Assembly (NCBI GenBank): GCA_965645245.1
Contig: OZ287071.1
Location: forward strand, 1,736,001 to 1,800,000
Source: Massalongia carnosa
Taxonomy: Eukaryota
Direction of reading: 5' to 3'
Length of the DNA: 64,000 bases
This document shows positions 3,001-53,000 of the stretch, one piece after another. Within the stretch, counting starts at the first letter, position 1, and every line of letters begins with the position of its first letter. A program made the translations under genes and the position numbers. A model generated the notes under the pieces. That model worked only from the letters and a program-made list of their open reading frames with translations, did not search any database and was not told the DNA's origin.

Positions 3001-5970
3001 TATGGCGAAAAGCCATGGCGTCGGTAGCAGCGGTGATATAGTTGTGGGAAATTTCTGAAGCATTTGGCTCTGTTCTTCCAAGGCTTCCTTGAGAGTCGAA
3101 ATCATCCTCAAGGTCCATTGCATTTTCCGCATCGGCAGAATATTGACTTTCAGAATCACGAAGACTCTCCCAGAACTCCGGACCAAAACTCTCCGCCATA
3201 GAAATGACACCACTAGAAATTGGAGTTTTATCTGGGATTACCTGCTGAAGCGTTCCCATAAAAGGCTCAAGTGATTCAAACACACCATAAATCAGATCAC
3301 GTGTTTGTGGATGACGGAGAATACAACGAAAGATCTGTCCTTTCAATTTGTCGAGGACGATTTGAAGATCTTTACTTTTCCGTGTTTCTTGAACAACTCC
3401 GTGACCTAGTATCGCATACCCAATGAGGCTCAATGACGAGGCAGCGAAAACAAGATCTCTCCCGATTCTTGACCCGCTTTCAGCTAAATCACCGAAATCA
3501 TCACGCAAAATGGCACCGGACTCAGCTAAAAGGAGATCAAGAACAACTCCCCTAAGAGTTTGAAGCTGAAATTTTGAAAGACTAATTTCCCAGGCTCGGA
3601 GAATTACGCTTGGCTTCTTTAACACTGATGGACCTGGGACAGCATCTTTCAATAACAAATACTCTATTAGCCCTTTCTCGTCGAGGCATCGAAGGTGTGC
3701 CTGAGAGAGTAAGCCAAGATCCAAAGCCGACCGAAGGCAGGGGGGAGGATGTTGAATTCCAAGGCAGACTGAAATAAGGCGAAAGATATGGTGGGTAGGA
3801 CGATTCTGAGGATGGAGTATACCATGATCCCGACCAAATAGCTTTGCTACTCTATAAATGAGCCCAATCTTGATCATATCATAAATGAGCTACTCACACG
3901 GGCTCCATCGGTTGCACAACCACCGAAGAATATGCTCGGAAGTCTCAAAGACATTGCCAAGGCTTTCCCGGCCTCTGAGAAGAAGAATAACTGACCATAA
4001 TGTGCTGGCAGAATCCACACAATCAACCGGTCCATTGAGATCAACCGATGAGATCATATTATCCACTACGTCTGAGATTTCGCTGTATAGAACGAGTCCA
4101 AGGTTCAAGAGGACTGCCATTAGTTGGCAGGCAGCTCTGCAGGTTATAGCGGCTGTTATATGTCTCGCTGCTAGCCGCCAAGTCTGAAGCCAGAAACGTT
4201 CGAATTGAGATGACCGTGAAGCGTCTTGTCCGGCAGCGCTGCAAAGACATTAATCAGTATCATCCCCCCCCTTTCCCCCTTAGTAGGCTGAAGAGCTAAT
4301 ACCTTGTCAACGCAAGCATTCCCCACGACACGATATTTGCCTGATCATCTGACAGACATAGTTGCATCACTTCCAGATATCGTTGTAGGCTGTCAACGTC
4401 AACTACCATCCTATCGAAGACAAAGCCCAATACCTGTAAAGCAAACAGTTTCTCCTGTGTCTCTGGCGATTTTGTGAGCTCAAAAATCTCATCCAGAGGC
4501 TTGATCAACTTTTGACGCTTCGGCGAATTTTCATCCTCATCGCATTCAAGAGATTGTCCACGTGTACGGGTGTCATCGCTTAGAACAATAGCAATTGAAG
4601 CACTTATGTACAACAAAGTCCATGGCTGTTCTGCCCTTAAAGCTGCCGCACGTACTCGAAAGACTTTTATACTTAGGGGCGCCTCGCTACCGAAAGGATG
4701 ATCTGGAAGCTCAAGGTCCTCAAGCTGCAGCTGTTCACGTTCCGGCCGTTTACAGTATTCCAGACGAAATGTCTCGAGAAGGCGTTGTAAATCTGCTTTG
4801 CAGTTACCTGTCCTGTCGGAAGATATCAAACGATCAAAGAAAACTTCCCCGAGCAACAGAGATATCAACATGTGATCTTTTACAGTGCTAGACTTTGGTT
4901 CCCAGAAGCGCCGGATATGTGGTAAAAGTTTTTGTACAGTTTTTAGCGTCAGATTAACATCATCAGTCATGACATGAGTGACAATAGCATTGATGGACTC
5001 AAAAATAACTTGCTGTACAGGCCCTGGGCTCGATGATGATGCAAGCAAATCAAAAAAATTAGAAAGCATTTCTTGCGCTCTATCATATACTGGTGCATTT
5101 GATGCTGCAATTAGATGTCTCATGCAAAGAACAAGGTCTTTCGTACTGCTCTTCAGTACCGACTGGACAGCGCGCCGGGATATGCGACTACCAACCTCAA
5201 GGTTACTTTCTCTAGTATCAATTGGGGTCACTGATCGGTTAAAGCTCTCCCAAGGGTTGTTTTTCTCCGAGTCGCTCAGAGAATTCTTTGGGGGGTTTCC
5301 GCTTGAGGCAGAATTTAAGTTATATAAGGTTTCGTTACAAAAGTCCACAGCTTCAAACCAGTCCTCTCTAAGCAGATGTTCCGGATGAGGCGGGTATTCC
5401 AGTAATGTCCTAAGCGCCTTGAAGTAGTCGGCAACCAGGGGCTCACAATAGCCATGATTCGAAATAGGCAACGTCTGACGTATGTGGTCGACAATAGCTT
5501 TCATTGTCTTAGAACGGAACTTCCTTACACCTAGCTCCACGGCGATCCGCACAACACTCGCGCATGCTGATAACCGCGAAGTAGCCTGACTCTTTACACT
5601 CGGTTTAGATGTCCTAGCATATGTAGAGCACTCAATTGTAGCAACCCGAAACAAAGCCTCCAAAATTTTGTGATACGATTTATCGGATAGAATCTCTCTA
5701 AAGGCAACTCATGAGCTTATTCCTTTCTATCGGTTTGTGAAGGGTGTGTACATTTTGGGGCTGCGACGATTTTGGGAAAGGACGTGCTTTAGGTCTTGAC
5801 TTGATTCAGCTCCGCGCAACACGGTTCTTAGACCTAATATACCTGCAATGCCTTCACCACGATCCTTCACCCTCTCAGACTGTATCCTGCCTAATAATTC
5901 TCAGAAGTTATACGTCAGAGATCAGCATTGGTCACGTACCAAGAGCATCATTTAGATTCACTTCACCCAT
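1..5970 (-). CDS. TEL1: Serine/threonine kinase Tel1/ATM, N-terminal and HEAT-repeat part (3' end outside window)
   Basis: Spliced start MGEVNLNDAL-GRIQSERVKDRGEGIA-DLKHVLSQ...IEILSDKSYHKILEALFR matches the Tel1/ATM N-terminal (TAN) region. Three short 5' introns, the 4296-5663 ORF, an intron near 4300-4240, then a long reading frame apparently open to position 1. Kinase domain not in window. Confidence 0.9.
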
Positions 5971-6246
5971 TTTGAGATTTGAGCATCGGCCTCATGGGAA
6001 AACATTGAGGTGAAAACCACCATCCCAGGTGTCACCACTCATCGGTTCCTCAGCTATTCACTGTGAAAACCCGTGAGCTGAATGGTATAATAGGTATCCA
6101 GTTGGAAAGATTTCATCCGAAAGAGGCATATCAACACCTACTCGTGTTGCGCTTGCGGCGCGCTTAACGTTACGGGCCGAATCGCTTCAGTCGCGTTAGA
6201 TTTTCAAGATCCAGGCCTGCTAACTTTCAAATCCAAATACTATCTA
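5971..6246. promoter_or_regulatory. Short bidirectional promoter shared by TEL1 and NUP192
   Basis: Start codons are head-to-head and only 276 bp apart. CGCG-containing MCB-like words: GGCGCGC 6157-6163 and TCGCGT 6191-6196. Confidence 0.55.
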
Positions 6247-9200
6247 ATGACAGATCGCAACAGTTTGGAAGGCCTTCGTGGCTTGCACCAAGACTTGATT
6301 GCTTTGGAGGACTCGCAGCTACGTAATATTGAGAGGTTATGGGCTGAGTTAGAAGCCCGGATCGATGAGTTCAGGAAGCTTCTGGACAAGCCTCCTAAGA
6401 AGGAGAACAGCCGGAATACAGTCCTTTCGGGTATGGTTGTTGCAAAAAGCCGCTGGACGATCTTCATTTCCTAAGATTGCTAATTGACTCTCCTTCAGGT
6501 AAATTTCAACTTGACGAGGAGGAGTACTCTATCAATTCTGAATTCATTGAAAATACTCTACAGCTTTCCGACACCCTGGGTTTAGATGAGATAGAATCCG
6601 CTCGGTTTATCCTAGATGCACAACAAGATGTTGAAGTGCTTGACAGGTCGAATTTTGTTTCTGCGGTAATTCGATTTCATGAGCGAAGGCAATTCTTGTT
6701 GGAATGTTTACGTCTTGTGTTAAAATGCTGCATCGACCTAGAAACCGAAGAAGGTACACGAGAAGTCCTGCACCAGGTTGTGGCTCTGATACTGGAGACA
6801 AAGGACGGACCTGCCCGCAACGGTTCCTTTTATGTTCAAAAATGCCTAAGCGCGATGGCAGAAGCAGAAAAATGGCTCCAGGCTCTTGGAGAGCGGTATC
6901 AAGGCACTCTGACACTCGGTCAGTCATCAATGCCTGAGTATGATGAGGTTATGGGGTTTCAGCAGATTAGTCTTGGACAACAACACGAGTCAATAGGGGC
7001 TGTGCTTGCGTACTTAGTCAAGGCAAGCTACACCGGAGTTGAGGATTTCTATAAACTTCTAGACCATTTGCCGAAGCTTGATAGATGGAATAGCCTTGCT
7101 GTGCATTATGTACCGCTTATTATAGCATTCACGGCACAGTTCGGCTCTCCTGATGGAAACGGTAGTCTTCGTGAGGCAAGATTACTCAATAGTGCAATAA
7201 TGGACAGGGGGAATTCTGCGCCTTGGGCATTACGAAACCTTCAGGCTGCAACAATTTCTTGGTGGCTTGCTGAGTATAGCGGATGGTATATTGATCAACC
7301 CCTTTCCAGCCCTCTTCGTGGGGTCGATCTTGAAGCCGAAGCTTCAGGCAGATCAGAAGCTTTCCTTCGAGCCCTCCAGGATGGAGCTTTCCAGTGCACC
7401 CTGTCTATATGCTCTCAAACCCGACCTGATGATTGGGCTGACCAGATGAGGAGTGGGCTGACGCAGCATCTTCTACGAGAGACCCCAGGCCTTGTTAATG
7501 GCGCAACCGGGATATCAAATTATTTCCAGGATCTAGTCATGGAGCAAGTAGAAATATTTACAGATGCTTTCATCGGCAACATGCCTGATACCCTACGGAG
7601 ATTCAGATCCAAAGAAGATGATCAACGAAAAAGAATTAACTCTAGGCTTCAATCAGATGCTCATAAAGGCGTACTGGAGCAAGACTTCCACCTAGAAAGA
7701 TTTCTACTTATCATTGCTTACGCATTCGAAAATCGCATTGAAGCTGCGCAATCTTTTTGGGGTGATACCGATAGCAACCTGTATGGGTTTCTGCAGTGGG
7801 CCTCTAAGAGGCAATCGACGCCACGAGTGGGTGCTTTCTCTGAAATGCTTCGTTCCATCTCAAAAGGTGAAGAATGTGCTACTGCTGCTCATAAATTCTT
7901 ACTCGAGGAAAGCAACACCTCCTCCGCCAGAATACGACGATCAAGTTCAATAAGCTGGGCTCAGATCATTGCGGAGCTGAATCTTTACACCTCAAAAATC
8001 GGGGATCATTCAGCTAACGTTCGGCCCACGAATCAGTATATCTCGAGGCCAAGTCCAGACGACATCGATGAGCCAGAGAGTGCGCTAATGCTGGAATGTT
8101 ACCTTCGACTAATCTCACATATATGTTACCAGAGTGCAGTGGCACGGTCTTGGCTCTTGTCACATCCAACTTTCCGCATATTAGATGCTTTGTTCCTGCT
8201 CTGCAGCAGTACAGTTCCATCTCGTCTACACGCTTGTGCGTTTAATACTGGACGAGCATTGTTGGCTGGCAAGTCAACAGCAAATGGCACGCTCATTTGG
8301 ACAGTGCTTGATCAATGGGCTTCGGGAGGGCTTGCACTATCTCTAAATGTGCCAAGAGTTTCTAAAATCACCAATGTCTCCGTGTCGGCAGAGGCCCTTA
8401 CGTTTGAGGGTATTGCAAATGATGTCGAGGAATCAAGCGAATTCGTTGGTTTGTTACAGAGCCTCATTTCTCCTGCAATTGACGAGTCTGGTCTTAATGA
8501 CTCGTTGCCTTTTCCAGAACATCTTGGCTCCGCATACCGTATGCCAGGGATAGATCCATACATAGATTTTGTGATGGGCAAAATTTTCGCTGTTCAAGCG
8601 CATCAGTACGAGAGCTTTTCCCAGCACAAGATCTTGAGGCTAAACATTCTAAACTTCATCGCAGCTTGCTTGGAAAGTTTTAATGAAGATCTAGTGATTT
8701 TAGCTAACAGATCAAACGTGCCTGTGGATGAGGCAATGAATGCTTCCTCCTTGTCGGCGTATGTCCGGTTACATCCTTTTAGCCGCGTGATGGAGTGGAT
8801 GTTCAACGAACGTGTGCTAATTGCACTTTTTGCTGCTGCGCATCAGGACATAGAGGAGGTATCTTCTGCTTCCTCGGATGGACCTCTGGTTTTAGGCCTC
8901 TTACGCAGTCTCGACGTCATGAGTCTGATAATGGATCTACAATCTACTTATTTAGACATAGTCCGACCGTTGATCAAGCTCGAGTCCAGCGAACGTAGCC
9001 AGTCAGTGCATAATCCATCTTTGGCATCTTTTGAAGATAGTGTGGCCACCCACCTCGATCTCGTTGTTGATTTAGGGTTATACTGCGGGGCTGGTATGCA
9101 GCTACTTACAGTTTCGTCTCTCAGGCTTTTGGAAAAGCTTGCAAGCTCACGAAAACTCAACTATCAACCGGTCCCTGGATTAAATAAACGACTAAATGGC

Positions 9201-11512
9201 AATCGTCTTATTGGGGTTCTTGAGCAGCAAAATGATCTCGAGCGTATTGAAAGGTCTTTGACTTTAGCCATGCAGTTTGATTTTCGAGAGCTCAGCCAAG
9301 GTACAAGTGCTCCTGGCTGGACGATCAAGTCTGTGATACTGGATTTTCTGATCCACTGCCTTGCTGTCTCGCCTGACAAGCCATCCTTGGCGCATGCTCT
9401 TCTTGGCTTTAATTGCAACGGTTTGGATGTAGATATAGGAAGCGACAGTCTATTTGCGCGAGGAAATTCCCTCTTTCATGCGATACTACGTTTAGTTATC
9501 GAATATCCAAATGGCACGGAAGGAATGATGCAGTCATGGTCGCTGAGTGTTAAACAAAAGGGGTTACAAATCTTATCCACCCTATGGGCTTCGCCCCTTA
9601 CGTCTATTTTCACTCTCTGTGAACTGCAGACAAGGGACTTTCTTTTCGCACTTTTTTTAAATCAAGCCCCTGTGGAAGCCACCACGATCTGGGATGGCCG
9701 CTTAATTAAGGACCCGGATTTTTGGTTTATTGATGCTGCGTTGGCATTCGAACAGTACCTTAGACAACGTTGCTATATATGCGAGTACACAAGCGCACAA
9801 TTAAGGCTTCTCGAAATTCAGGGCATACCCTCACTTAAGGCACGCATCCTTTCCACCCTGCTTGGGTCAACATCCATGCCAGATGGGCAAAAACTGGCCA
9901 ACCTGACCATTTTTGATCTTCTTGACTTCGCCGAGTTAGACTTCTTTGGTTTCCCTGCAGCCCCTGACTCCATATATTTTGCAGAGTTGGATTTTGCAAT
10001 AACCACAGAACCGGATTCCGAGACTGGCGGCGGTGAATACAACTTGAAGATAGTAGAAGAAATGATGGCATTGCACATTAACAAACTGCGAAAAAATAAC
10101 GGCCTGGACGATCAGACTAAGGGACAAAGAGCTCTAGATGAGGCTCAAAGTATTCTGCTCTATCTCCACGGCGCAAACAACCATCGCAGCCTGTACTTGG
10201 CAAGATCTCAAACCTTGAAAGCCTGGGTTGATCTGCTGACGCTTGTCATTCAACACTGCGATCTTAATGATGATGGCATATCAACCTTAGTATTGCAGGC
10301 ATTTCAATTCCTAGGGCCCAAACTTGAGAAGTATGTTGTAGAGAGCACAACTGAAGCCATCAACCTAGCGAACCTAATATACTTTCTCTTGCTTCGGTTC
10401 GATTTCAAATCGTCAATATCGAATGGAGCCCGAGTAGGTGACGTTGCAAGCGACAGGTTGTTTCAGGTATTTCGTACTGCTTTACGAGCGATACACATGC
10501 CCGAAGGGGAAGCGCTACTCCGGGAGATCTTGTACAATATTTGTTATCGGTACCTGACCGGCACAGCTAAGGTTTCGAGCACCCCTGTCCGCCGTCGGCA
10601 CAGCACGCAGGTGGTCAAGGCAGCTGGCGAGAAGCTGATAGATATTATCTGTGACGATGCTCATGGAGGGTCTGGGACTTGCAGAATCTCTGCTCTTTTG
10701 CTGCTTGACTCACTAGTAGCGTTGGCAAAGGAAGAAAAGTCAAACTACATGGTTGATTCATTGGTGCGGACGAATTTCATCGTGGTACTCGTCGAAACGA
10801 TCCAAGATATTCCTCAGGAGCTTCGAGAGACTGATTCCAACGGTAAATACCTCTCCGACGCTAATCTTCTTACCTCTGCTAACCGACCTGGCGGCATAGA
10901 AATCCCACTCCTCCTTTCTTACTATGAAAGTAAATTCTTACTACTTCTCAGCGTTGCTCAAAGCAGGGCAGGCGCGGTCAGTCTCATGAATTCGGGACTG
11001 TTCTCAGCCGTACGCGCCTCTGGCTTGTTCTCGCTTGATCCCGATGTTGGTGTTGGTAGGTTTCCCCACCTAAGTCCTTGACGCCGATCGAAGCTAAGCT
11101 CATCAATACCAGAAACTGGCAATCCGGATGCCTTAACCAAGTACTACAAATTAGTACTGTCCATCACCCGTGTCATTACCGCCGTGGTTCTTAGCCGCGG
11201 GTCCCAAAACGAGCAAACTATCGAGCAGGCCAAGTCATTCCTCATCGAGAACAGAGCCTCGGTGGTAGCTATCTTCAAGCGGCAAGCGAAGATTGGCGCG
11301 AGTCTATCGAGCGATGCGAGCGAGCTCATCGATGAGTTGGTGGAACTGTTTGTAGTGCTTTTTACGATGACTAGGTTTTTGGAGGTAAGTTTTCGACTTG
11401 TTTTCACGTACACATAATGCTTTTTAAGTTGCTCGTTGCTGATTGAAGTGGGGTTATGTAGTACGAAGAGGATCGAGATGGCCGGAAATTTCGAAAGTCG
11501 GGGTTTACTTAG
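6247..11512 (+). CDS. NUP192: Inner-ring nucleoporin Nup192/Nup205
   Basis: N-terminus LEGLRGLHQDL...IERLWAELE...FRKLLDKP and LGLDEIESARF...RFHERRQFLLECLRL; internal FPEHLGSAYRMPGIDPYIDFV; 1534-aa core ORF. GT-AG introns near 6431, 10843, 11056 and 11386; last exon YEEDRDGRKFRKSGFT* ends at 11512. Confidence 0.9.
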
Positions 11513-11652
11513 CGACCACCCTTACAAATTCCGACAGCCTGAAAGGAGAGATCTCGTGGCGCCATCACCTGGCTCTTCTTATCACCACTTCATCTTCTTA
11601 CTTACTTGTACCATCGTCCCATACATCCTCTGCCCCTTTACCCCTACCTCCC

Positions 11653-11712
11653 TACCTCTCTCCTTACCTCTCTCCTTACCTCTCTCCTTACCTCTCTCCT
11701 TACCTATCTCCC
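11653..11712 (+). repeat. 12-bp minisatellite (TACCTCTCTCCT) x~5
   Basis: Four perfect units plus one variant unit read directly. Confidence 0.9.
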
Positions 11713-13537
11713 TTCTCAACCCCTATAACAAAATGAGAAGTACACCAGATATCACAAGAATGATATAGATAAGGTTATGACTGAGTCGATGGGTCTGGGC
11801 TGGGAGCGAGTGTGCGCGGTAAGAGAGTTCCAAAACGAACAGCTCGCAATGGTTAAACTTTTGAGAGTATTTATGTCTTGATGGATTCTGGGTGCTTATT
11901 TAAACTCAACCCAAATGAAACAAAGTACTTGTCCTCCCCCAAAACTGAAGACATGAGGCATTTCCCATACACTCATCGCCCTCGGGCCCCCCTTCCCCCC
12001 TTCCTGTAACTCCGATATCTTTCTTTTTGCCTCTTTCCTTTACTTCACTGCCCCCTTAATCGATTGATCCTTTCATAACTGATCAAAGCATGGCATTTTA
12101 AACATGACTAATTTTGCTAATGAATGAAGACACATACTCGTGTCAGGAAACGGCGTTGCCTCCGCTGGAGGTGAATTGCTGGTTTTTACACCGGTCCTGT
12201 CTGCAACTTCATACTGGTGTTTGCAGCCCCTGTGACGGTAGGTACATTCTACAAGAAAGCGCCTGGAGACCCTATAGGTGGAGCTACTGCCTGAAGTTTT
12301 GTCATTGAGGTTTAATCCCCGCTTCCCCAGAAATAGAAATTAGAAATTAGCTAATCAGTTGTACTATTACTAGCTTCGCAGTTTAAATATTCGAAAACCT
12401 CCTCCAAGTGGAAACTAGAAGAGTTTCTTGTAGGTGTTTATTTTCTTTCGAACTACGCATCAACACATAGTTCAGTTATCTTCATTGCAAGTACCTGGTC
12501 CGTGGCAAGACACATACTCTCGACGCACTCCTCCACTTACAAATACTCTCTGCCTGGAAGCACAGGGTATGGCGATGCAACTTGAGTTAACGTCCAACAG
12601 GTTCCGCCTCTTAGTGAGTATATTCAAGCTCCCTGTTTCCGCCCATGTAGCATCATCAGATATATTCGAACCCGTGAGCTTATTACAAGGAGGAGAGACA
12701 ACGGCTGTATCGGCGAAGTTGAGGTCGCTCAAAGCCACCACAGCGCTTGGGACAGCCAAAGGTTCTCACTCTGAATATCAAACATACTCAAGTCCCATGA
12801 AGCATCTGGCGTGTCACCAACAGTGTTTTCTAAAGTGTAGGGAAGGATGCAGGTCATAAGATATGAACAATTTAAATACATCACGAGACCTTCCAGCTAT
12901 AGCTTTATTTAAAAAAGGAAGGGGGCATTGGCTCCATATGTAGACGAATGTCCAGTGGGACAGAATGCTTTAGCTAACCTTCCTCGGGGCGTTTCAGACC
13001 CTCTGCGAGCGCTTAGAGCCTCGGTGCGATCAACATAATCAACCTTCATGTTGAATAAAGCCAGTTTCACACGTGAACATGATGGATCCGCTAGGAAGGT
13101 CAGGCGTTTCGAAGCCTCTTCGACGCTCAGTTGTAAGAACAGAGAATACCCCTGAAGTTTACATTGATTTCGTGTCGTCGCTGCCTACTTAGCACGTAAT
13201 TCGAGCTTTGTTCCATATATTGAACACTCACACATGAAAGTGGTGTTGATACAACATATACGAAGTAGGTAGAGAGAATATTCATACTGATTAACGTCCA
13301 TGCAGCCAATCAATCCTCCTACCCCTTAACTATCGTTATCTCCGATTATCACCGATCATCGTGTCATTCCCCATTGAGCTCATCGATTAATCCACACGGT
13401 AACTCGGCTTCCATTCGGTTTGATAGGTAGGTAGGTAATTCGTTAGTAAAGAGTTTCTCGCCTGCTAGATGATCGTCTCAGCATTCTACATTCTCAGGAC
13501 TGTAAACAGCTTCAGCTAATATCTACCATAAAGCTAG

Positions 13538-43662: not shown

Positions 43663-45485
43663 ATGTCAACAGTAATCAATAATGAAGTCGAGGATGAGAA
43701 TGAAGGCGATCAAAGAAGCCTGTTGCTGGACACCAATAGCACTCAGCCGTCAGTTAATATACTATACCTTTTACTTCTAACCTGCGGAATTGGAGGGTAC
43801 GTAATAACTCTGACATATATGTTCTGGTTTCATATATTGATTCTCAATCCAGCTTGCAAGTCGTTTGGTCTGTGGTATTATCAAATGGTTCAGTGAGTGC
43901 TCTGCGCTGCTTCGAACACCGTCTGTGCTATGTACGCTACGGCTCCTATCAGTTTCTGACTATCACTCAGCCATTTCTTGTATCCCTAGGCCTTTCAAAG
44001 TCCCTTACTGCACTTATCTGGATAGCAGCGCCCCTTTGTGGGGTGGTTGTCCAACCTGTAATGGGATTTTTAAGTGATCAAAGTCACAATCGTTGGGGAC
44101 GACGAAGACCCTTCATCATTTGGGGTGCGCTGGGAACCATTATCTCCATGCTCGCCCTTGCCTGGGTTGAAAATATCTTCTACGTATCTACAAATTCCGT
44201 TGGTGGACACCTTAAACAAAGCACCCTGCAGTCTTTGGTCGTGGTACTTGCAACTTTCTGGATCTATGCTCTCAACATCTCCATTCAACCTCTTCAGGCA
44301 GGCATTCGTGCACTCATCGTGGAAAATTGTCCTACACATCAACAAAATCAGGCTAGCGCATGGGCCAGTAGGATGATTGGAGCTGGAAATGTGGTTGGCT
44401 ATCTCTCTGGATCAGTCTCGCTGCCCGAAATATTCCTGTCGTTCCATTTGGCGCAATTTCAAGGCTTATGCCTGATTGCTAGTTTATCATTGGTCGCTAC
44501 GGTCATCATCACTTGCTTCTCAATCGTTGAAACAAACCCAAGAAAGAAATCTCCGGTCTCGCTCAATAGCGCCAGCTTAGCAACGATGCTGCGGAGGCTG
44601 ATTCGCACTTACAACTTGATGCCGACCCGAATTCGAAAAGTGTGCCACATACAGTTTTTTGCCTGGATGGGTTGGTTTCCTTTTATGTTCTATTCAACCA
44701 CGTAAGTCGACCTACAAAAGGTATTATATGGCACCCTCAAGCTGATTGCTTTCTTTCTTTCGCGTAGTTATGTAGCAGAGCGCTGTGAGTAATAGCTCCA
44801 GAAATGATCAACATAGCGCTGACAGCAACTAGGTGCTGCTCCTCCAACGATTAGAGGTTCCATTCCAAGCCAACGCCAAATAGACCAAGATGCAATCCGG
44901 CGTGGAACATTCGCTAGCCTCCTCTTCGCAATCGTCGCGCTATTAGCCAACATTGCCCTTCCTTTCCTTATCGATTCTCCCAGGAAGGACTTTAACAATA
45001 CATCACAAGACTATGCCTCCGATTTCCTTTCACGCATCGCCCGATTCAATATTCCCCGCGCATGGACCTGCGGGCATCTTATCTTCGCCCTAGCCATGTT
45101 TGCTACCTTCTTCGTAACCTCCATAGCCGGCGCCACCCTTCTCGTCGCGTCCGCCGGCCTCTCCTGGGCGCTCACTCTCTGGGCCCCTTTCGCCATCATC
45201 GGCACCGAAATCGCCGCCCGTCAGTGTCGTAGTCGCCCTCTTGGCGAATTCAACATGGGCGAGGACGCGGAGGAAGACTTAACGACACGAGATCAAGCAG
45301 GGGCTATCATCGGATTGCATAATGTTGCCGTTTCCGCGCCGCAGATCTTGGCCGCGTTTTGGTGCAGCGGGATTTTCTGGGCGGCACAGGCGTTTGGGAG
45401 TCGTGAAGGGACGGCGTGGGTGCTGAGAGCGGGGGGCGGGATGGCGTTGGTGGCTGCATGGTTGACGAGGAGGTTTGAGGAGTGA
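43663..45485 (+). CDS. GPH/MFS general alpha-glucoside/sucrose-H+ symporter (S. pombe Sut1-like)
   Basis: IWIAAPLCGVVVQP..G..SD...RWGRRRPFI, QPLQAGIRALI, VCHIQFFAWMGWFPFMFY, GAIIGLHNVAVSAPQ. Four introns, including a 17-nt micro-exon at 44768-44784. Confidence 0.88.
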
Positions 45486-45993
45486 GATTGGTAGGTCGTG
45501 AGCTTGGGGGTATAACTTTTTGGGGGGTTCCTGGGATTTATTTTCATGGTGGATAGATCTAGAGACCGATCACCTTGGGATCTTTAAAGGTCTACAAGGC
45601 TTGTCGACATTCATATCTCACTATGTATTTGATATATGTTATCGACTAATGCATTTAAGTATTCATGCAATTCTTTAGTCTCATTCCTTCTCGTTCGATC
45701 TCACCTCGTCATATTGAAATATTTGCTGGTGAGATTTGATCAATTACCGTCAACAAGCAAACGACTAGGAGAGAATATAACTTTCTTAAAAGGGCGTTCA
45801 CCGGTACACGTTAACGATCACGAGAGATTTAACCCCCCCAAAAACCACAGTGTTTTGGAAGCTTCGCTAGCAAAGGGAATATGGCAGGCTAGAGGCATCA
45901 TACTACGATTGATGCCGCAATACCAAGCCTGTGGATTGATATTTTCACGTGACCGTATGACTGATTAGTCAGGACAATCGTACTCCGTACATA

Positions 45994-46011
45994 TCAGTAC
46001 CTCAGACGTGC
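45994..46011 (+). repeat. Left terminal inverted repeat
   Basis: Reverse complement of 48795-48812 with one mismatch. Confidence 0.85.
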
Positions 46012-46488
46012 TGTGGCTCAGCCTTCGCCTTTATAACCTTTTCCGGTTAACTTGGCGCTAACTTATTTAGCCTTCAAGTCTAACTTTTTATAGTTAGACT
46101 TTACTTACTAAGTTCGCTGTGTGTGAGGGCAAAACTCAATAATACAGGCAGGTTTGCCTTATAATGAGAAAATGTTAAAATACCAAACCGCCTTACCCGA
46201 TTAAGCGTAAAATATCAACTCGATTGTGTTATACCATCCCATCGTTTCTATGAGTGTTATTTATGTGTTTTCCAACTACACGACAGACTATGCGTGCTGT
46301 AGAACGCCATCAAGGAACAATGAGCGCGCTTTTTAACCTCGATGCAAGTTAGACAAAAGGCCCAGATCTCAGTCTAAAATGGACATCTAGCTGAGTCACG
46401 AAAATAGTAAGAGAATGATAGCTGCAAGCGGTCATTGATTCATAATTAACTTGTCATCTTATAGCTAGACTATGTACGGCAAAGCTAG

Positions 46489-47438
46489 GATCGAGCGGCA
46501 ATCATCCTTCATGAACAGGGTTGGACCTGGGTCGCGGAGGCCCTTCGAGCGGAGCTCAATGCACTGGTTGCAACGGCTGCATTTGGGGTTTTCCACCCAC
46601 CGTCGGAGACTGACGAGCTGGGCACCTTAAATAGCTTCAAGGGTGCCGCATCGGTCATCATGAGTAAGGCGCCACGATGGCTAGATCCTATTCAGCGCGT
46701 CTGTTGTGATACCCACCGAGACGAGTCCACTCATCCTCAGCGCGCCACTCCGGTCGGGCGGCAGTTAACTATATTGTCCCTCTTTTGTCACATATTGCGC
46801 CCGAATACGTCAACAAATTTTCAGAGCGTCATGGGCCTTTATATCTATCAGGGTGGCGCCAGGCGCAGAGTTCTGGATACTCTATGTCAACTTGGCTTGA
46901 CAATGTCGTATTCCACTCTTCAACGGCGCATGTCAAGCTTAAGTGACGAAGCGAGGCGAAAAATAAGGACGATAGGACGAGCTTCAACTACTGTTGTAAC
47001 CTATGATAATTTTGTTTTTGCAGAAGGCCGAAGAGGCGAGAGAATCGGTGACGTAAGAGAGTTTCGATCAATTACGACCGCTTTGATATTTGAAGGACAG
47101 GGCCTTGGGATAACGGTCTTGAGACAAAATATGTGGCAACCTGAGAATTATCCTTTGTCCGCCATATGACTCGCACTAAGATTGAAACCAGATGACATAG
47201 ACGCACAGGTAAGCATCGACCACTTTTCCAAGCGGCTTACTTGAAACTGATGAAATGTGGACGAAGATTCAAATTCATCATGTCGAGTCGGCAATCCAAG
47301 CCCTTTACAATGCTAAATTCAGCGACTTCAACTTTCCTCGGGTTACATCCATGCCTGTGTTGAAAAGACTGAATCGCCTTCGAACGAAGTATCATCCGTT
47401 GAAGCCGGTTATGAAAGACGAAAGCACAACTGTTGAAG
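46489..47438 (+). pseudogene. Truncated Academ/DUF6589-type transposase
   Basis: ELNALV..FG.F...APRWL, GARRRVLDTLCQLGLTMSYSTL, VVTYDNF and HPLKPVMKDESTTVE, then cut. In-frame TAGs at 46462 and 46486, TGA at 47167, intron ~47209-47266. Confidence 0.7.
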
Positions 47439-48198
47439 ATCAAGCATTTCAGCTTGTGATTTCAACAAATAACTGACTTGAATGTAAATCTCTGGTCAAT
47501 CAAGAGGTGTTTTGATAAGTCGAGTTTCATCATGAAACCCACATTGACTTCTAACGCAGTTCAAGCTTTCTCCATCCAATGTTGCAGAAACTCCCAAAAA
47601 GGGTATTCCATCTGGCAATCATGTTCGAAGCACCCCAAGATTGAAGTATTCAGGTCGAAAATCACGCCATTCCGATACCAGATGCAGCCCGTCGATAGCC
47701 AACAGACAAAGATTTGAGAAATAAGATGAATGACTGAGAACCATTTCGTTAAACAATTTCGACGTTGCTATTTCTGGACTCATGAATACTGTAAGTAACA
47801 ATTAGAGCGCTGACTTGTATACAAACAGATTTATTCGACTTATCATGAGTGTAACGACTATGACGAATAGCAGTCAAGGTAGACGAGTTGTTATTATCTC
47901 CGTTCAACACTATGGGTCGACAGTTGTCGATGAGTATAAGTTTTTCACATTGCTCTTCTTCCAGTGCAATCAAAGGCATGATTATCAACACTGACTTGCA
48001 AGGCGAAAACATCAAAGGAGCACCTTGAAATAGTATGCTTTTTCCGAAGCCTGTTTTTGCTATCAAAATCAAATCCATCTTATCGCACAACAGATGATGA
48101 AGAGCATCCACCTGCGCCCTCTTTAGACGAAACCCGAAATAACGATCAACAACGCTCTCGATCTTCTCAAGAGTCAACGCCTGTATCGCGTCGTTCAT
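47433..48198 (-). pseudogene. Truncated RecQ-like SF2 helicase (first RecA domain only)
   Basis: Motif I DLILIAKTGFGKS, Ia IIMPLIALEEEQ, Ib VFMSPE, II LLAIDGLH (DExH degenerate), RecQ aromatic loop SEWRDFRPEY, III GVSAT, then LD*PEI. TGA stops at 47621-47619 and 47498-47496; intron 47843-47789 with donor mutated to AT. Confidence 0.85.
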
Positions 48199-48794
48199 AT
48201 TGATGTAATAGCGCTACAATCTTGATCGAGTTTCGAACTGTCAAAAAGCACGCTAGCAAGGACGACGACTAGATTTTCGAGTTCGGAGCCCTGAAGGACT
48301 ATAATAACTTGATCCGTCAAGGCAATATGATGGATATAAGCGCCGACCGTTGATTTGAAGAGCAAGACTCAGTTTGATATTGTCGTGCTGTTGTCGGGAT
48401 TTGAGAAACAATTTGAGTCGATGTTGCTCGACGAGGAAGATATTCGCGCAACGCATGCAGGGCGTTTAAATTTTAGGACATTCAATAAAGCATATCTGAA
48501 AGTAGCGGCGAAAATGAAGTATTATATAACAATTATCATGTGTTGTTGTTGATCCTGTCCTGAACGTGAAAAACGATGATTTTTTATCTTAAGCACGAAA
48601 TTTACATGTGTTGTCACCAAAATAACGCGAACCTGGCAAAATTACAGAGTTTTGAACTCAGACCTGCCGCCCGAAGCATACGTAGTAAGCTAAACAGAGT
48701 CTTAACCCAAAACAATTAAACTATTCACTAAACTAGCTTAGCTTTAGACTAATAATATACTAATCTGAATAGGTTTAGCTGTGGCGAGGGCAAG

Positions 48795-48812
48795 GCAGGT
48801 CTGAGGTACTGA
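48795..48812 (-). repeat. Right terminal inverted repeat
   Basis: Reverse complement of 45994-46011 with one mismatch. Confidence 0.85.
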
Positions 48813-49498
48813 GGCAACATACGAAGTACAAGCTCTTCCATCGGCTGGGGAGATGAGGTGGTTGGTTCACCACGTCCAAACATACTGTCGCTCTTCAACT
48901 CTTCAGGTTACTCGTCATCCGCCAAACGGATGATGCTTTGCATTGGCTTTCCGCATGGCTCCTGTACGCGTGTCGTAACCTTTGCCATGGAGTGCTTTGG
49001 GAGCAGAAAACCTTTTGGAATGCGAGGAGTTGTGGCGTAACACTGACCGCAAAGGCGATGTGGCTTGTCCGGTATTCTTTTGCGTTAACCCATCAACCGG
49101 GCGCTTGATGTAATTTTGCCCTAGTGCCCCCTAGTGCCATGAAAGACGACCTGATCGATTCATGTACAGAGTTAGATGATGACGGCATGGCTGGGCTGTC
49201 AAGAGTCCAATTTGCGATTTTGCCATGACCCCCCCACCCATTTTGTAATAGCTTCATAGGTTCATTTCTCGGTCTTGGCTCTATTTACCACAGGACTACA
49301 GTACCATTGGCATTTGAGGAACACGCTCAAATGAAACGAAGGGACAGGTGCTCTGCAAAGTCAAAATCAACGGCAAGGCCCGAATGAGTGGTAGGATCAA
49401 TGGTGGGAATCAATGATATCCGAAGATATTCCTCCTTGCGTAATCAATACCGTGATACAGGGTAGCTTGCGCCAAAGACGGGTCTGTTGCACTCTGCG

Positions 49499-49685
49499 CC
49501 AATGGTCGAAGCCCGAAAAGGTCAAGTTTACGTATATGATACCGAATACCTGCGCCATCGGTACTCAATCACAGCCAATCGAGACGGCTTAATACAAAGG
49601 GAGGGGGATGGGAAATGAACCAATGGCACTGACCAATCGGCTCGAGTGGTGACGTAAGGGTTGGCAGGTATGGCCCTCTCCCAAT
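49499..49685 (+). promoter_or_regulatory. Cluster of five CCAAT boxes plus an ATF/CRE site upstream of the DUF4449-type gene
   Basis: CCAAT at 49499, 49575, 49620, 49633 and 49681; TGACGTAA at 49650-49657. Confidence 0.5.
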
Positions 49686-50020
49686 CGCGCTTTCTTTTCT
49701 GTGATCCTGTTTTCCCGAATGACCCACTCACAATTTAAATTAAACTCCAACCTCCCCCCCTCCCCATCCGTCTAACACCTCTAACAACCTCAACATCCGA
49801 ACTCACTTCCTTCCTCATCTACAGAGGTACAATTGCTATCATCATCCTTCTCTTTCTTCTTTTCAGTGATACCCTTTGCATCATTTTCGCATTCAGTGCT
49901 AATTGACTGTAACCCGTCAAAGAAAGAGGACTTGTACTTGCATTTGATACCCTCTGATCTGATCTTACGTCAACATTGTCAAAAACAACATCGCATCAAC
50001 CACCCCAAATTCCCGCCGCC

Positions 50021-53000
50021 ATGGCCTCAGTCAATCGTCCGACCAACGTGAAGCAAAAGGAAGCTGATGTCAATCAGAAACTCCAGCTTTACGGTATTTA
50101 CTCAGGTATGGTCTACGCTATGTGCTTTCTACCGTGTCATCCATTCGTGCCGATTTAGCGCTTGCCAGTTATGAAGAAGCTAGGATAGTTATTATGACGA
50201 GCAAGGCTGATGGTGTCATATTCGCAGCTTTCGCGAACGGCAAATTTCCATCGGTAAGTAAGTCCACGTGACATTTCCAGCTTTTCATTCTGACAACTCT
50301 TCGCGCAGAACAAACAAATCGACATTGCGCTGAACTCCGCACTTAATTCTAAGCCACTCACCCAGCCTTCTGCTAAACTCTCACCCGAGGGCAAGCGTCT
50401 TGTCGCTGATCTTCGAGACGTGGTTGAGCAAGCAAAGATCTTGCTCTTGACAAAGAATGAGGGCAACTTACTTCAGGATTTTCTCTGGCAAACAGGCAAC
50501 ATATCGGGTGACAACGCTAGACTACCAGGCGCTCCGATCGACAAGAGTACCGCTCAGCAACATGGCAATCAAGCGCTCGATGGATTAAGGACACTTGGGA
50601 CTTTGTTGATCTCAAATGGTCAATTCCGAAAACTTTGTTTGTTCTTCATCCCCGAATTTCAAGTCTTTACCTAATATCTGGTTTAGTGAACGATGCAACA
50701 ATTCTGCTTCGAGATATTGCCGGCGATGCTGCCCAAAATGCTGCCACTCGCGTGAATCCGTCGCAAGATCAACTGGCCCAGATCGACCATGCTGCAGATG
50801 ACAACACGTGGCATGATACTCCTGATCTGTCTCGTGGTAACTTGAAAAACCAGGTCAAGGGTCAATACAACCAACAAAAACCATTCTCACGAAACGATGT
50901 AAAGAACGCCGCTGGTGATGCCACGCAAGCTGCGCACCCTTCAGGTTCACGCGACCCGGCAGATGCAGCAAATCTCGCGGCACACGACCATCAGCATGGA
51001 ACCGATTCTGGGGTTGATCCCAGAGCCGGTGCAAACACCGCTGCTCAAAATCTGCGTGATCAAGCATCCCAAAATGTTCCGGACGAGACTAAAGATCGCG
51101 CACGTAATATTGGGAACCGCACGAAAGACTATGCTAGGGAGAAATTACCTCAGGAGCGACGCGATCAAACTGTATATCGGTTGAAGAAAATGATCGTCGA
51201 GATTCAGGGTCATCAAGATTGTTAGTATATTTGGCGTTAATCTCTGCTTCCAATTCATGGCCAAAGCTAACATATACCAGATCAACAAGCTGTGGAGACC
51301 CTTCTTGGTCTTGCGGAGGAATATGCCGGTCACGGAAGGAATATCAGCCAACAAGGAGCCGGGACTGTCAAAGGTGCCCATGGCGATTCCGCCCTAACCA
51401 CTGCGGAAGCTGACTTGAAGGTTGGTTCTAGGCTTTGTTTCTGAGAATGGAACAATGCTAACTCAGTTAAAGACACTTCTTGAACGCTTTGCAAATTCAA
51501 CCTCTGCTGACGATCTAATTGACGCTGTCAACGCCATCTATAATGATGCTGACAAAGACCCCGAACTCAAGGGATGGTTCCGCCAAATCAACTCGTACGT
51601 TCGAAAATGCTTGAATGAGCAGGGTTTCGTTATGCAAGATGCTGCTACTCACGAATGGAACCAACTCTCGGACAAGGGTCACTTCCTTCTCCGAGACCGT
51701 TATCGTGACCACACGAACCGCATCATTGATGAAGTTAAGTTCATCGCCGATCAGTTTGACAAGGATCCCCAGAACAAACACTTCGCCGAGTCGGTGAACA
51801 AGCTTTTCCTTGAGCTTGGTAATGATGAGAATGGAAAGCCTGTATTCAAAAAGCATTTGGTGAAAGACTTGAGCCAAGTCATCATTCCAGGTATTTTCGA
51901 GAGTGTACGCTATGTTCCTGTACCTCGTATCGAGTACACCGATCCGATGATTGATGCCATCGTGGAGAACTTGGTTATTGAGAGCGATAACCTCATGCCA
52001 AATTCCTTCGAATTTTCGAGCGATAATTACTTCCGTTGGGGACGTAAGACGGTCACTAATAAGAACAAGAATAAAGTCATGGTCTCTGTCTCTGGTGTGC
52101 AGATGGACTTGAAGGATGTGAGCTACTACGTCAATAGGAAACAAGGATTCCCCAAGCTTAAGGATACCGGCGTAATGGATATCCACATGGGCGGAACTGG
52201 ATTCAGCTTCAAGATTGCCATGGAGACAGCCGACAAATCCGATGGCCAGCACTTTTTCAAGATTAATACCGTTACCGTTGATATCAAGAGTCTCAACATC
52301 AAACTAAAGCAGTCTAAGCATAAGACCTTGTTTAATATTTTCAAGCCTCTCCTGTTCGCTATCATACGTCCTGCCGTTGGCAAGGTCCTCGAGAAACTTA
52401 TTAGAGACCAAGTGCACGAACTTGATAGCAAGGCCTATGCTATTTATACAGAGGCCGAGCGTGCTAAGAATGCTGCCAAAAACAACCCAGAACAGGCTCC
52501 CAATATTTACAATCGCTATGTCACCGCTGCGCAGAAGAAATTCACTGAAGGAAAGCAGAAGGCGGAGGAAGCCACAGCAGGCAAGAAGGCTAATGTTGCG
52601 ATGACTCAGCACGATTCCATTTTCCCTGACATCAAGCTCCCGGGCGGTATTTCGACTAAGGCAACGGAGTACAAGAATCTTGCCGCCAAAGGCGATAAAT
52701 GGGAGTCTCCAATCTTCGGCATCGGGTCTGCATCGGAGACCTCTCCCTTCCCAAAAGTCACCCCAGTTTCTCGCAAGCCTCACAATGCTGCGTCTGGAGG
52801 TGTAAGGGGACCCCAGAACATTGAGCCTGGCCAATCCACCTTCGGTCAAGCGGAGCCACGGCATGAGACTGGTTATGGGCAAGGATCTGGATACGACCAG
52901 AATGCTGGATATGGGCAGAGCGCCGGCTATGGGCAAAATACCGGCTATGGTCACAGCAACGGATCCTCTGGCTTCTCTAACCAGGTCAACCAGGCTTTCG

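Follow-up and report, generated by a model that had tools for sequence, protein, structure and literature searches.

What is the stretch of DNA that lies between two short inverted repeats and carries, on opposite strands, pieces of a transposase-like gene and of a RecQ-like helicase gene? The question is raised by positions 45994 to 48812 of a 64,000-nucleotide (nt) stretch of the genome of Massalongia carnosa (GCA_965645245.1, contig OZ287071.1, 1,736,001 to 1,800,000, forward strand), which is referred to below as the window and whose coordinates, counted from 1 at its first letter, are used throughout. An original prediction had read the region as a helicase-carrying transposon of the AcademH type, bounded by terminal inverted repeats (TIRs) of 18 base pairs (bp) and enclosing two convergent genes. 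We regard 45994-48818 as probably a non-autonomous relic, with internal deletions and further decay, of a cut-and-paste transposon that occurs in multiple copies in a lichen-associated ascomycete. The element is a genuine transposon of a kind described before, and it leaves the picture of how DNA transposons move unchanged.

Terminal repeats and copy number

The predicted arms are present as an inverted repeat of 18 nt, of which 17 positions are complementary (94%), between 45994-46011 and 48795-48812. Taken by itself the repeat is not beyond chance: it has a blastn E of 0.64 inside the window, and its 13-nt core, with up to two mismatches allowed, occurs four times in the window against 1.23 expected, a count equalled in 6 of 100 shuffles. 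The inverted repeat is accepted as real because of evidence from outside, namely multi-copy contigs and a matching end in a related locus, and not because of window statistics. Two TIR-like 13-mers at 9329-9341 (minus strand) and 9753-9765 (plus strand) were considered as further ends and rejected, because they face outward and their occurrence is expected by chance; the window was found to hold just one copy of the element.

The outside evidence on copy number comes from the contigs of four public runs (X1, X2, X4, and X5, from three studies, with run organisms coded as 'lichen metagenome', A and B), which were mapped onto window positions 44500-50300. Contig depths of the left and right flanks are 28.2 and 26.7 in X1, 154.2 and 139.9 in X2, and 876.3 and 873.8 in X4, and by this measure the flanks are single copy, while single internal contigs have depths of 244.7-307.7 (X1), 1157.6-1323.3 (X2), and up to 7796 (X4). 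In X2 and X4 the long contigs from the left flank stop at 46023, that is 45993 + 30, and the right-flank contigs start at 48789 (X2, equal to 48819 - 30), 48811 (X4), and 48778 (X1); stopping 30 nt inside an arm is how contigs built from 31-mers behave at the edge of a repeat. These depth steps at the arms bear out the prediction of a TIR-bounded, multi-copy DNA transposon. Between the internal contigs and the window about 1-2% of letters differ, and a rough depth ratio suggests about 7-11 collapsed copies.

A second line of outside evidence is provided by four loci on metagenome contigs (L001 to L004), the ones confirmed among 176 pattern matches of a scan with the protein alignment. L001 contains the full-length gene of a homologous protein, P0001 (exon 1 from 10001, exon 2 at 11286-12797), 48% identical to that of the window, and 5.8 kb upstream of this gene stands the end sequence of the element: L001 4150-4172 matches the window right end at 22 of 23 positions, including five bases past the 18-nt arm, and the left arm at 18 of 18. 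In scans of a prokaryote and a viral collection the end 18-mer was met at five loci and one locus, respectively, with no similarity beyond the 18-22-mer itself. The 18-mer being so rare elsewhere, the end match in L001 is therefore not chance, and the ends adjoin a DUF6589-family gene in another species as they do here, as one of the checks attached to the prediction had asked. The other three loci hold distant (24-27% identical), truncated relatives.

The deletion structure can be read from the same contigs. Record 10 of X2 (46875-47569, depth 1157.6) spans the junction between the transposase and helicase pieces, and therefore the deleted form is itself multi-copy. Shorter forms built of two ends only exist as well, as contigs in which the ends are joined: 46102 to 48686 in X1 (108 nt on the shorter side and 32 other letters between), 46119 to 48664 in X5, and 46121 to 48695 in X4. 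Loose ends at 46485 and 46487 (X1, X2, X5) mark a place where other copies carry additional DNA. At 47430 an X1 contig departs from the window and continues in the transposase frame; the 30 letters past this point translate, by eye, to ..TNNLHILEHL, where L001 has ..SNNIQILEDI.

Architecture of the ends and the target site

The arms stand as predicted, but their extent does not: the repeated unit continues on the right to about 48816-48818 (GGCAAC), and the matching bases are missing at the left end, whose tip is short by the outer 4-6 nt. The letters (G)TTGCC outside TCAGTACC are present at a loose end of X5 (before 45994), in L001, and at the window right end, and are absent from the window left end.

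A motif, CTCAGAC(G/C)TGC, is found at the tip and again as an inverted copy 90-140 nt inward. It occurs at 46001 (+), 48657 (+), and 48795 (-) in the window, where the left end has the tip copy only, and at 4162 (+) and 4252 (-) in L001. A decayed inner copy can be recognized in the window left end near 46117-46131; at this place the inner motif is intact in other copies, which also carry extra DNA, as indicated by the loose end at 46121. The ends fold as hairpins closed by the two motif copies (z of -4.11 for the window right end, -3.74, and -2.86 for the window left end). Each end would comprise about 100-150 nt, and the end motifs are putative binding sites of the transposase. An imperfect palindrome at 46056-46116 (72% over 64 nt, core AAGTCTAAC..GTTAGACTT) was also noticed and coincides with the best inner stem of the folded left end.

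The pentamer ACATA adjoins the left end and is found again at the right end, where it overlaps the uncertain last bases of the element (Table 1). A flank repeat of at least 5 nt within ±3 nt occurs in 0.76% of random position pairs. Joined with one copy of ACATA, the flanks form a palindrome matching at 18 of 22 positions, which is reached at 14 of 20,000 random places; the rebuilt target is palindromic, and the flanks therefore look intact. A duplication of 3-5 bp is possible, its length being set by the true last base of the element, as judged from one copy with an abnormal left tip. A duplication of 9-10 bp was not found at any offset within ±3 nt of the ends.

The transposase fragment and the DUF6589 family

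The plus-strand gene is a fragment. Its frame at 46489-47169 contains LGLTMSY and TYDNF, and the next frame, at 47213-47476, contains KDESTTVE. Of the motifs named in the prediction, LGLTMSY and YDN belong to the transposase in full, whereas DESTTVE is a composite: DESTT is transposase, and 'VE...' is antisense helicase read beyond the junction 47430/47431. Homology to L001 exon 2 and to P0081, a spliced, annotated homologue of 945 amino acids, ends at 47428-47430. Four proteins of 400-434 amino acids, 48-49% identical, match the gene, and in tblastn (E 1e-73 to 2e-63) the match runs in one frame from 46465/46492 to about 47220, straight through a TGA that stands in frame at 47167-47169. This stop is peculiar to the window copy: where it has T at 47167, all other contigs of X1 (two), X2 (two), and X5 (one) and part of X4 have G. 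P0081 matches 46528-47142 and 47249-47428 in two different frames; since it spans both sides, the interval 47209-47266 is a real intron, and this half of the prediction of an intron in each gene is confirmed.

The predicted DUF6589 label of the protein holds by way of its homologues. The window's own Pfam match to DUF6589 (PF20231) is below threshold (E 0.013, 14.7 bits versus a cut-off of 27, positions 15-83 of 410), the first plus-strand frame has no Pfam match, and the assignment of the fragment rests on longer relatives: the domain is found in 8 of the 10 longer members scanned (E 1.3e-13 to 1.8e-65, 50.9-222 bits), located after the region that the window has kept, and in L001 exon 2 (E 1.5e-60, 205.5 bits). 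An exhaustive profile search returned 929 cluster representatives at E ≤ 0.001, 83 of them at 1e-30 or better, most being about 300-450 amino acids long and matching the exon-1 region of the profile only. All carry the name 'hypothetical', Sclerophora amabilis, Geoglossum umbratile, and Ilyonectria destructans being the sources of the named members. Clusters with DUF6589 are commonest in Basidiomycota, Mucoromycota, Cnidaria, and Mollusca. Four paralogues that are 76-100% identical (P0081, P0154, P0155, and P0156) lie on separate long contigs of one Sclerophora amabilis assembly, which looks like a recently active family with decaying copies.

The structure of P0081 was modeled with AlphaFold2 on a 34-row alignment (predicted local distance difference test score, pLDDT, of 73.4 and predicted template modeling score, pTM, of 0.71), and the model was compared with solved structures by Foldseek and then by VIA-align, with a separate search of 48,161 chains. 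VIA-align places the model closest to the P element transposase, with Z = 9.7 (root-mean-square deviation, rmsd, of 5.6 over 346 aligned residues), followed by Hermes (8.0-8.6; at Z = 8.6, rmsd 7.0, 290 aligned), Transib (7.2), ISCth4 (7.0), and RAG1 (4.4-6.8), with unrelated rows at Z = 3.4 or less; the rows listed from the search of 48,161 chains are almost only RNase H-like proteins. Three conserved acidic residues accompany this predicted fold: D261, the Asp of YDN on strand 1 (32 of 33 sequences), an Asp at column 421 just past strand 4 (11 of 12), and E665 on a late helix (14 of 15), with a helical insertion between the conserved acidic residues in the model. Conserved blocks include YDNFEF, GDQKT, LFHLxMN, and ETDRxxELxN, with no C/DxxH. 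On the strength of the model and these residues, the DUF6589 family is predicted to be a DDE (Asp-Asp-Glu) transposase with an RNase H-like core, in agreement with the transposase homology that the prediction had proposed as a check. The window copy retains the first Asp only, its YDN being located at 47005-47007.

The prediction of the fold has a wider meaning, as a large eukaryotic DUF6589 family gains evidence, at the level of both fold and genomic context, that it is the catalytic core of a DDE transposase, and genome annotators should mask its genes as transposon genes. In the available part of one preprint (bioRxiv 10.1101/2025.10.24.684071), DUF6589 together with a Tet-like oxygenase domain is discussed as a possible virulence factor or epigenetic regulator in stripe rust; our results suggest that these stripe-rust genes are transposon genes. 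A literature search for 'DUF6589' found no other text mentioning the domain and none that links it to Academ.

The helicase fragment

The convergent minus-strand gene was correctly recognized as a RecQ-like helicase. It shows AKTGFGKS (motif I), motif Ia, LLAIDGLH, SEWRDFRPEY (with the predicted WRDFRPEY loop), GVSATLD (motif III, SAT), and RPEIYIQV, with a degenerate motif II that reads DGLH in place of DEAH. Pfam DEAD matches the first helicase frame above the cut-off (E 6.1e-07), and the best solved relatives all belong to the RecQ family, namely WRN (E 2.9e-07), RECQ5 (0.022), Escherichia coli RecQ (0.027), and RECQ4; WRN takes the first 13 places among the 31 PDB sequences with E ≤ 1, and RECQ5, RecQ, and RECQ4 come next.

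This gene, too, is damaged. The second RecA-like domain and the RQC region are deleted, and the frame from RPEIYIQV at 47431 back to the start codon at 48198 contains two in-frame stops. Together with the TGA at 47167 in the transposase piece, these stops show that the repeats enclose no working genes, both being fragments. Between about 47790 and 47830 the helicase frame shifts by one base. A true frameshift or else an intron of very small size would account for this: the GT..AG intervals in that stretch measure 34-38 nt, and one of them alone restores the frame. The second of the two predicted introns is accordingly left unconfirmed.

The helicase is part of multi-copy contigs that extend to the right subterminal region (X1 records 5 and 6). 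No close cellular homologue was found in a word-based search of longer proteins (0 of 195 candidates at E ≤ 0.001), and an Atlas search with the helicase gave generic DEAD-domain clusters only. From its position and its divergence from cellular RecQ we infer that the helicase is native to the family.

Proposed history and decay of the window copy

Full-length members of the family would encode a DDE transposase of roughly 900 amino acids, with an N-terminal helical region followed by an RNase H-like core with a large helical insertion, DUF6589 being the RNase H-like part. They would presumably also encode the RecQ-like superfamily 2 (SF2) helicase on the opposite strand, directed inward from the other end. 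Two or more internal deletions, one at 46486 and another at 47430/47431, may then have produced the window copy; lost with them would be the 5′ part of the transposase gene, the second Asp and the Glu, and the latter half of the helicase. The deleted form may subsequently have been copied to roughly 7-10 places, with transposase presumably supplied in trans by full-length copies.

The family has been active recently enough to leave copies about 1-2% apart as well as deletion derivatives, and the window copy is probably immobile now, given its private stop codons and shortened left tip. Repeat-induced point mutation was considered as the cause of decay and rejected: TpA/ApT (0.78) and (CpA+TpG)/(ApC+GpT) (1.18) resemble the flanks, and the 32 listed differences from other copies are without CpA bias. 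The damage needs no cause beyond ordinary mutation and deletion.

Layout of the element and its surroundings

Table 1. Features of the element at 45994-48818 and its immediate flanks (window coordinates)
Feature	Position	Strand	Remarks
Possible target-site duplication, left copy ACATA	45989..45993	.	Same 5 nt at 48817-48821
Left terminal inverted repeat TCAGTACCTCAGACGTGC	45994..46011	+	Lacks the outer (G)TTGCC of the right end, of L001, and of other copies
Left subterminal non-coding region	46012..46485	+	Extends to deletion breakpoint 1
Transposase gene, 3′ part of exon 1	46487..47208	+	Equals residues 166-408 of P0001
Transposase intron, GT..AG, 58 nt	47209..47266	+	P0081 matches flank it; in L001 the donor falls at that codon as well
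First 54 codons of transposase exon 2, where the Pfam DUF6589 region begins	47267..47430	+	Ends at deletion junction 2
5′ part of a RecQ-like helicase gene, with the start codon at 48198-48196	47431..48198	-	Motifs, Pfam DEAD, WRN match
Helicase upstream region and right subterminal region	48199..48794	-	Contains CTCAGACCTGC, an inner inverted end motif, on the + strand at 48657-48667
Right terminal inverted repeat (18 nt) and outer GGCAAC	48795..48818	-	Last base uncertain, 48816-48818
Possible target-site duplication, right copy ACATA	48817..48821	.	Overlaps the uncertain last bases of the element

The two gene fragments, both truncated at the 3′ side, meet tail to tail at 47430/47431 (Table 1). 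G+C is lower, about 0.40-0.43, across much of the element. On one side of it lies a major facilitator superfamily (MFS) transporter gene and on the other a HAM1-like gene. One X1 contig, 4703 nt long and with the depth of single-copy sequence, lacks 285 nt of the left flank, its joint running from 45649 to 45935; the omission would be a strain difference immediately outside the element.

Further features of L001 deserve a description. Between the terminal repeat and the transposase gene lie an 879-amino-acid frame at 7264-9903 (+), the C-terminal part of which matches PhyH-type 2OG-Fe(II) oxygenases (E 6.5e-05), and a 516-amino-acid frame at 4774-6324 (-) with no Pfam match; both may be passenger genes. 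A GC-rich palindrome of 21 nt (AAAGCCGCGC NN CGCGGCTTT) is present three times, at 4621-4641 near the 3′ end of the 516-amino-acid frame and at 9955-9975 and 12800-12820, bracketing the transposase gene before its start and at its stop; it was found neither in the nine other loci nor in the window, and could be a terminator-like hairpin or a cassette boundary. In L003, the relative at 5957-7045 is 24% identical to the transposase and consists of exon 1 only, with unrelated frames on the opposite strand after it, one of which (268 amino acids) is rich in Cys and His as read by eye; an inverted-repeat search in this locus gave nothing useful, and the relative is probably another decayed element.

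The ends of the family are now defined by a terminal motif, an inner inverted copy, and hairpin-like arms, and they are conserved despite a transposase identity of 48%. They offer handles for finding further copies and for building a mini-element for transposition assays.

Alternative explanations

A number of observations weigh against our reading of the element as a deleted copy of a helicase-carrying family related to AcademH. The left tip is short and yet the flank repeat abuts it, and the repeat measures 3-5 bp and not the 9-10 bp of AcademH. Contig depth is, by the caveat of the tool, not a copy number, and the depth ratios are rough. No contig of X1, X2, X4, or X5 joins both flanks as an empty site would. 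On the side of the proteins, Foldseek gave no match at E ≤ 0.001 (best Hermes, 0.013), and P0081, the very protein that was modeled, has Asn at column 421. As for the link between the two genes, L001 to L004 contain no helicase match, L001 stops 264 nt past the transposase stop with the far end of its element outside the contig, no full-length element with both genes was seen in the contigs and loci examined, and the multi-copy helicase contigs may all stem from one deleted form.

One alternative, a chance match of inverted repeats around two decayed host genes with no mobile element involved, could draw on the blastn E value and the shuffles given above; depth rising exactly at the arms in four runs, the existence of contigs made of ends only, and the same terminal sequence near a homologous gene in L001 refute it, and we give it practically no weight. 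A different origin can be proposed for the helicase alone, as a fragment of a host or foreign gene that was captured by one non-autonomous element (transduplication) and then amplified. The possible descent of every multi-copy helicase contig from one deleted form would fit such a capture, as would L001, in which the PhyH-like oxygenase frame and the 516-amino-acid frame between end and transposase gene appear as passengers; against it, the helicase fragment has its own start codon and upstream region beside the right end and faces inward, and the lack of a close cellular relative in the search of 195 candidates would be surprising if a host RecQ had been captured recently. We consider this origin quite improbable.

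Two further alternatives concern the family to which the element belongs. Kolobok elements duplicate TTAA, and no TTAA flanks the ends here. KolobokH is described, in the available text of two papers (PMC9587614, PMC10989895), as fungal and as encoding a RecQ helicase, and it shares with the present element the combination of a fungal DDE transposon with a RecQ-like helicase. Its catalytic motifs as given in a part of the PMC9587614 supplement (FDCSWSH, DGDLDSNKT, DLKH, NEAFNR) differ from ours in all four regions, there being here, as judged by eye, no C or D three residues before a conserved His, and its helicase lies downstream of the transposase domain according to the same source, in contrast to the separate, convergent gene of the window. 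That the element is a KolobokH is therefore highly improbable. It is also conceivable, if on the whole unlikely, that the element is what we describe and the family is not Academ at all, being instead a lineage or superfamily of its own, so far uncatalogued, whose structural class is that of hAT, P, Transib, and Mutator and which gained its helicase independently, as KolobokH did. The flank repeat of at most 5 nt and the 18-of-22 palindromic target, set against the 9-10 bp given for AcademH in the accessible text of PMC10045372, point in this direction, as do the nearest solved folds (P element and Hermes) and the fact that no text was found linking DUF6589 to Academ. On the other side, a DDE transposase with a separate SF2 helicase fits the descriptions of AcademH in the portions available of PMC10799480 and PMC10045372, the taxon range of DUF6589 (Basidiomycota, Mucoromycota, Cnidaria, Mollusca, and here Ascomycota) fits that of AcademH, and the duplication is read from one copy with an abnormal left tip. 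In a more specific and rather speculative form, the foldback ends and the 3-5-bp palindromic target would mark a lineage apart from AcademH, to be placed as the third within Academ or as a superfamily of its own in the hAT/P class; it would still be active in lichen-forming fungi and yield deletion derivatives and forms like miniature inverted-repeat transposable elements (MITEs).

Comparison with known systems

In its architecture, the deleted copy of a multi-copy transposon described here resembles internally deleted elements and MITEs, such as Ds relative to Ac, in which the ends are kept, the coding middle is lost, and the deleted form is amplified. The shorter forms made of ends only extend this likeness, and the window copy is unusual only in its shortened left tip. 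P-element and hAT transposons make 8-bp duplications and are not known to carry a helicase. With the P element and Hermes the predicted transposase shares an RNase H-like DDE core into which a large helical insertion is set, after strand 5 and before the helix of the Glu; it differs from the P-element and hAT proteins in sequence, with an identity of 8-10%, and in having no C/DxxH.

AcademH is said to be the helicase-encoding lineage of the Academ superfamily, reportedly after Kojima in 2020 (Mob DNA 11:15). Known here by description, it is TIR-bounded and has a DDE-type transposase and a separate SF2 helicase (DEAD / Helicase_C type); in the window, a RecQ-like helicase fragment does stand besides the transposase, between the same ends and convergent with the transposase fragment. 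According to the part of PMC10799480 that was available, AcademH transposons occur in animals and fungi, in low copy in Basidiomycota, Ascomycota, and Mucoromycota, which corrects the earlier view that they are found mainly in animals and non-ascomycete fungi. The range in Ascomycota, Basidiomycota, Mucoromycota, and animals equals that of the DUF6589 clusters, a matter of consistency only; three supplementary files of PMC10799480 contained no match to DUF6589, PF20231, or Academ. A further paper, PMC12210899, likewise describes AcademH in the portion available. In the target site the window copy, with its repeat of 3-5 bp, departs from the 9-10 bp of AcademH, the value of AcademX being 3-4 bp in the excerpted text of PMC10045372.

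As helicase and transposase together in fungal DNA transposons are already in print, the earlier view of this locus as the best candidate for an undescribed system was too strong. AcademH is the closest known kind, in a comparison made by description; we infer a kinship with it, and the element is placed beside AcademH and not filed as a member.

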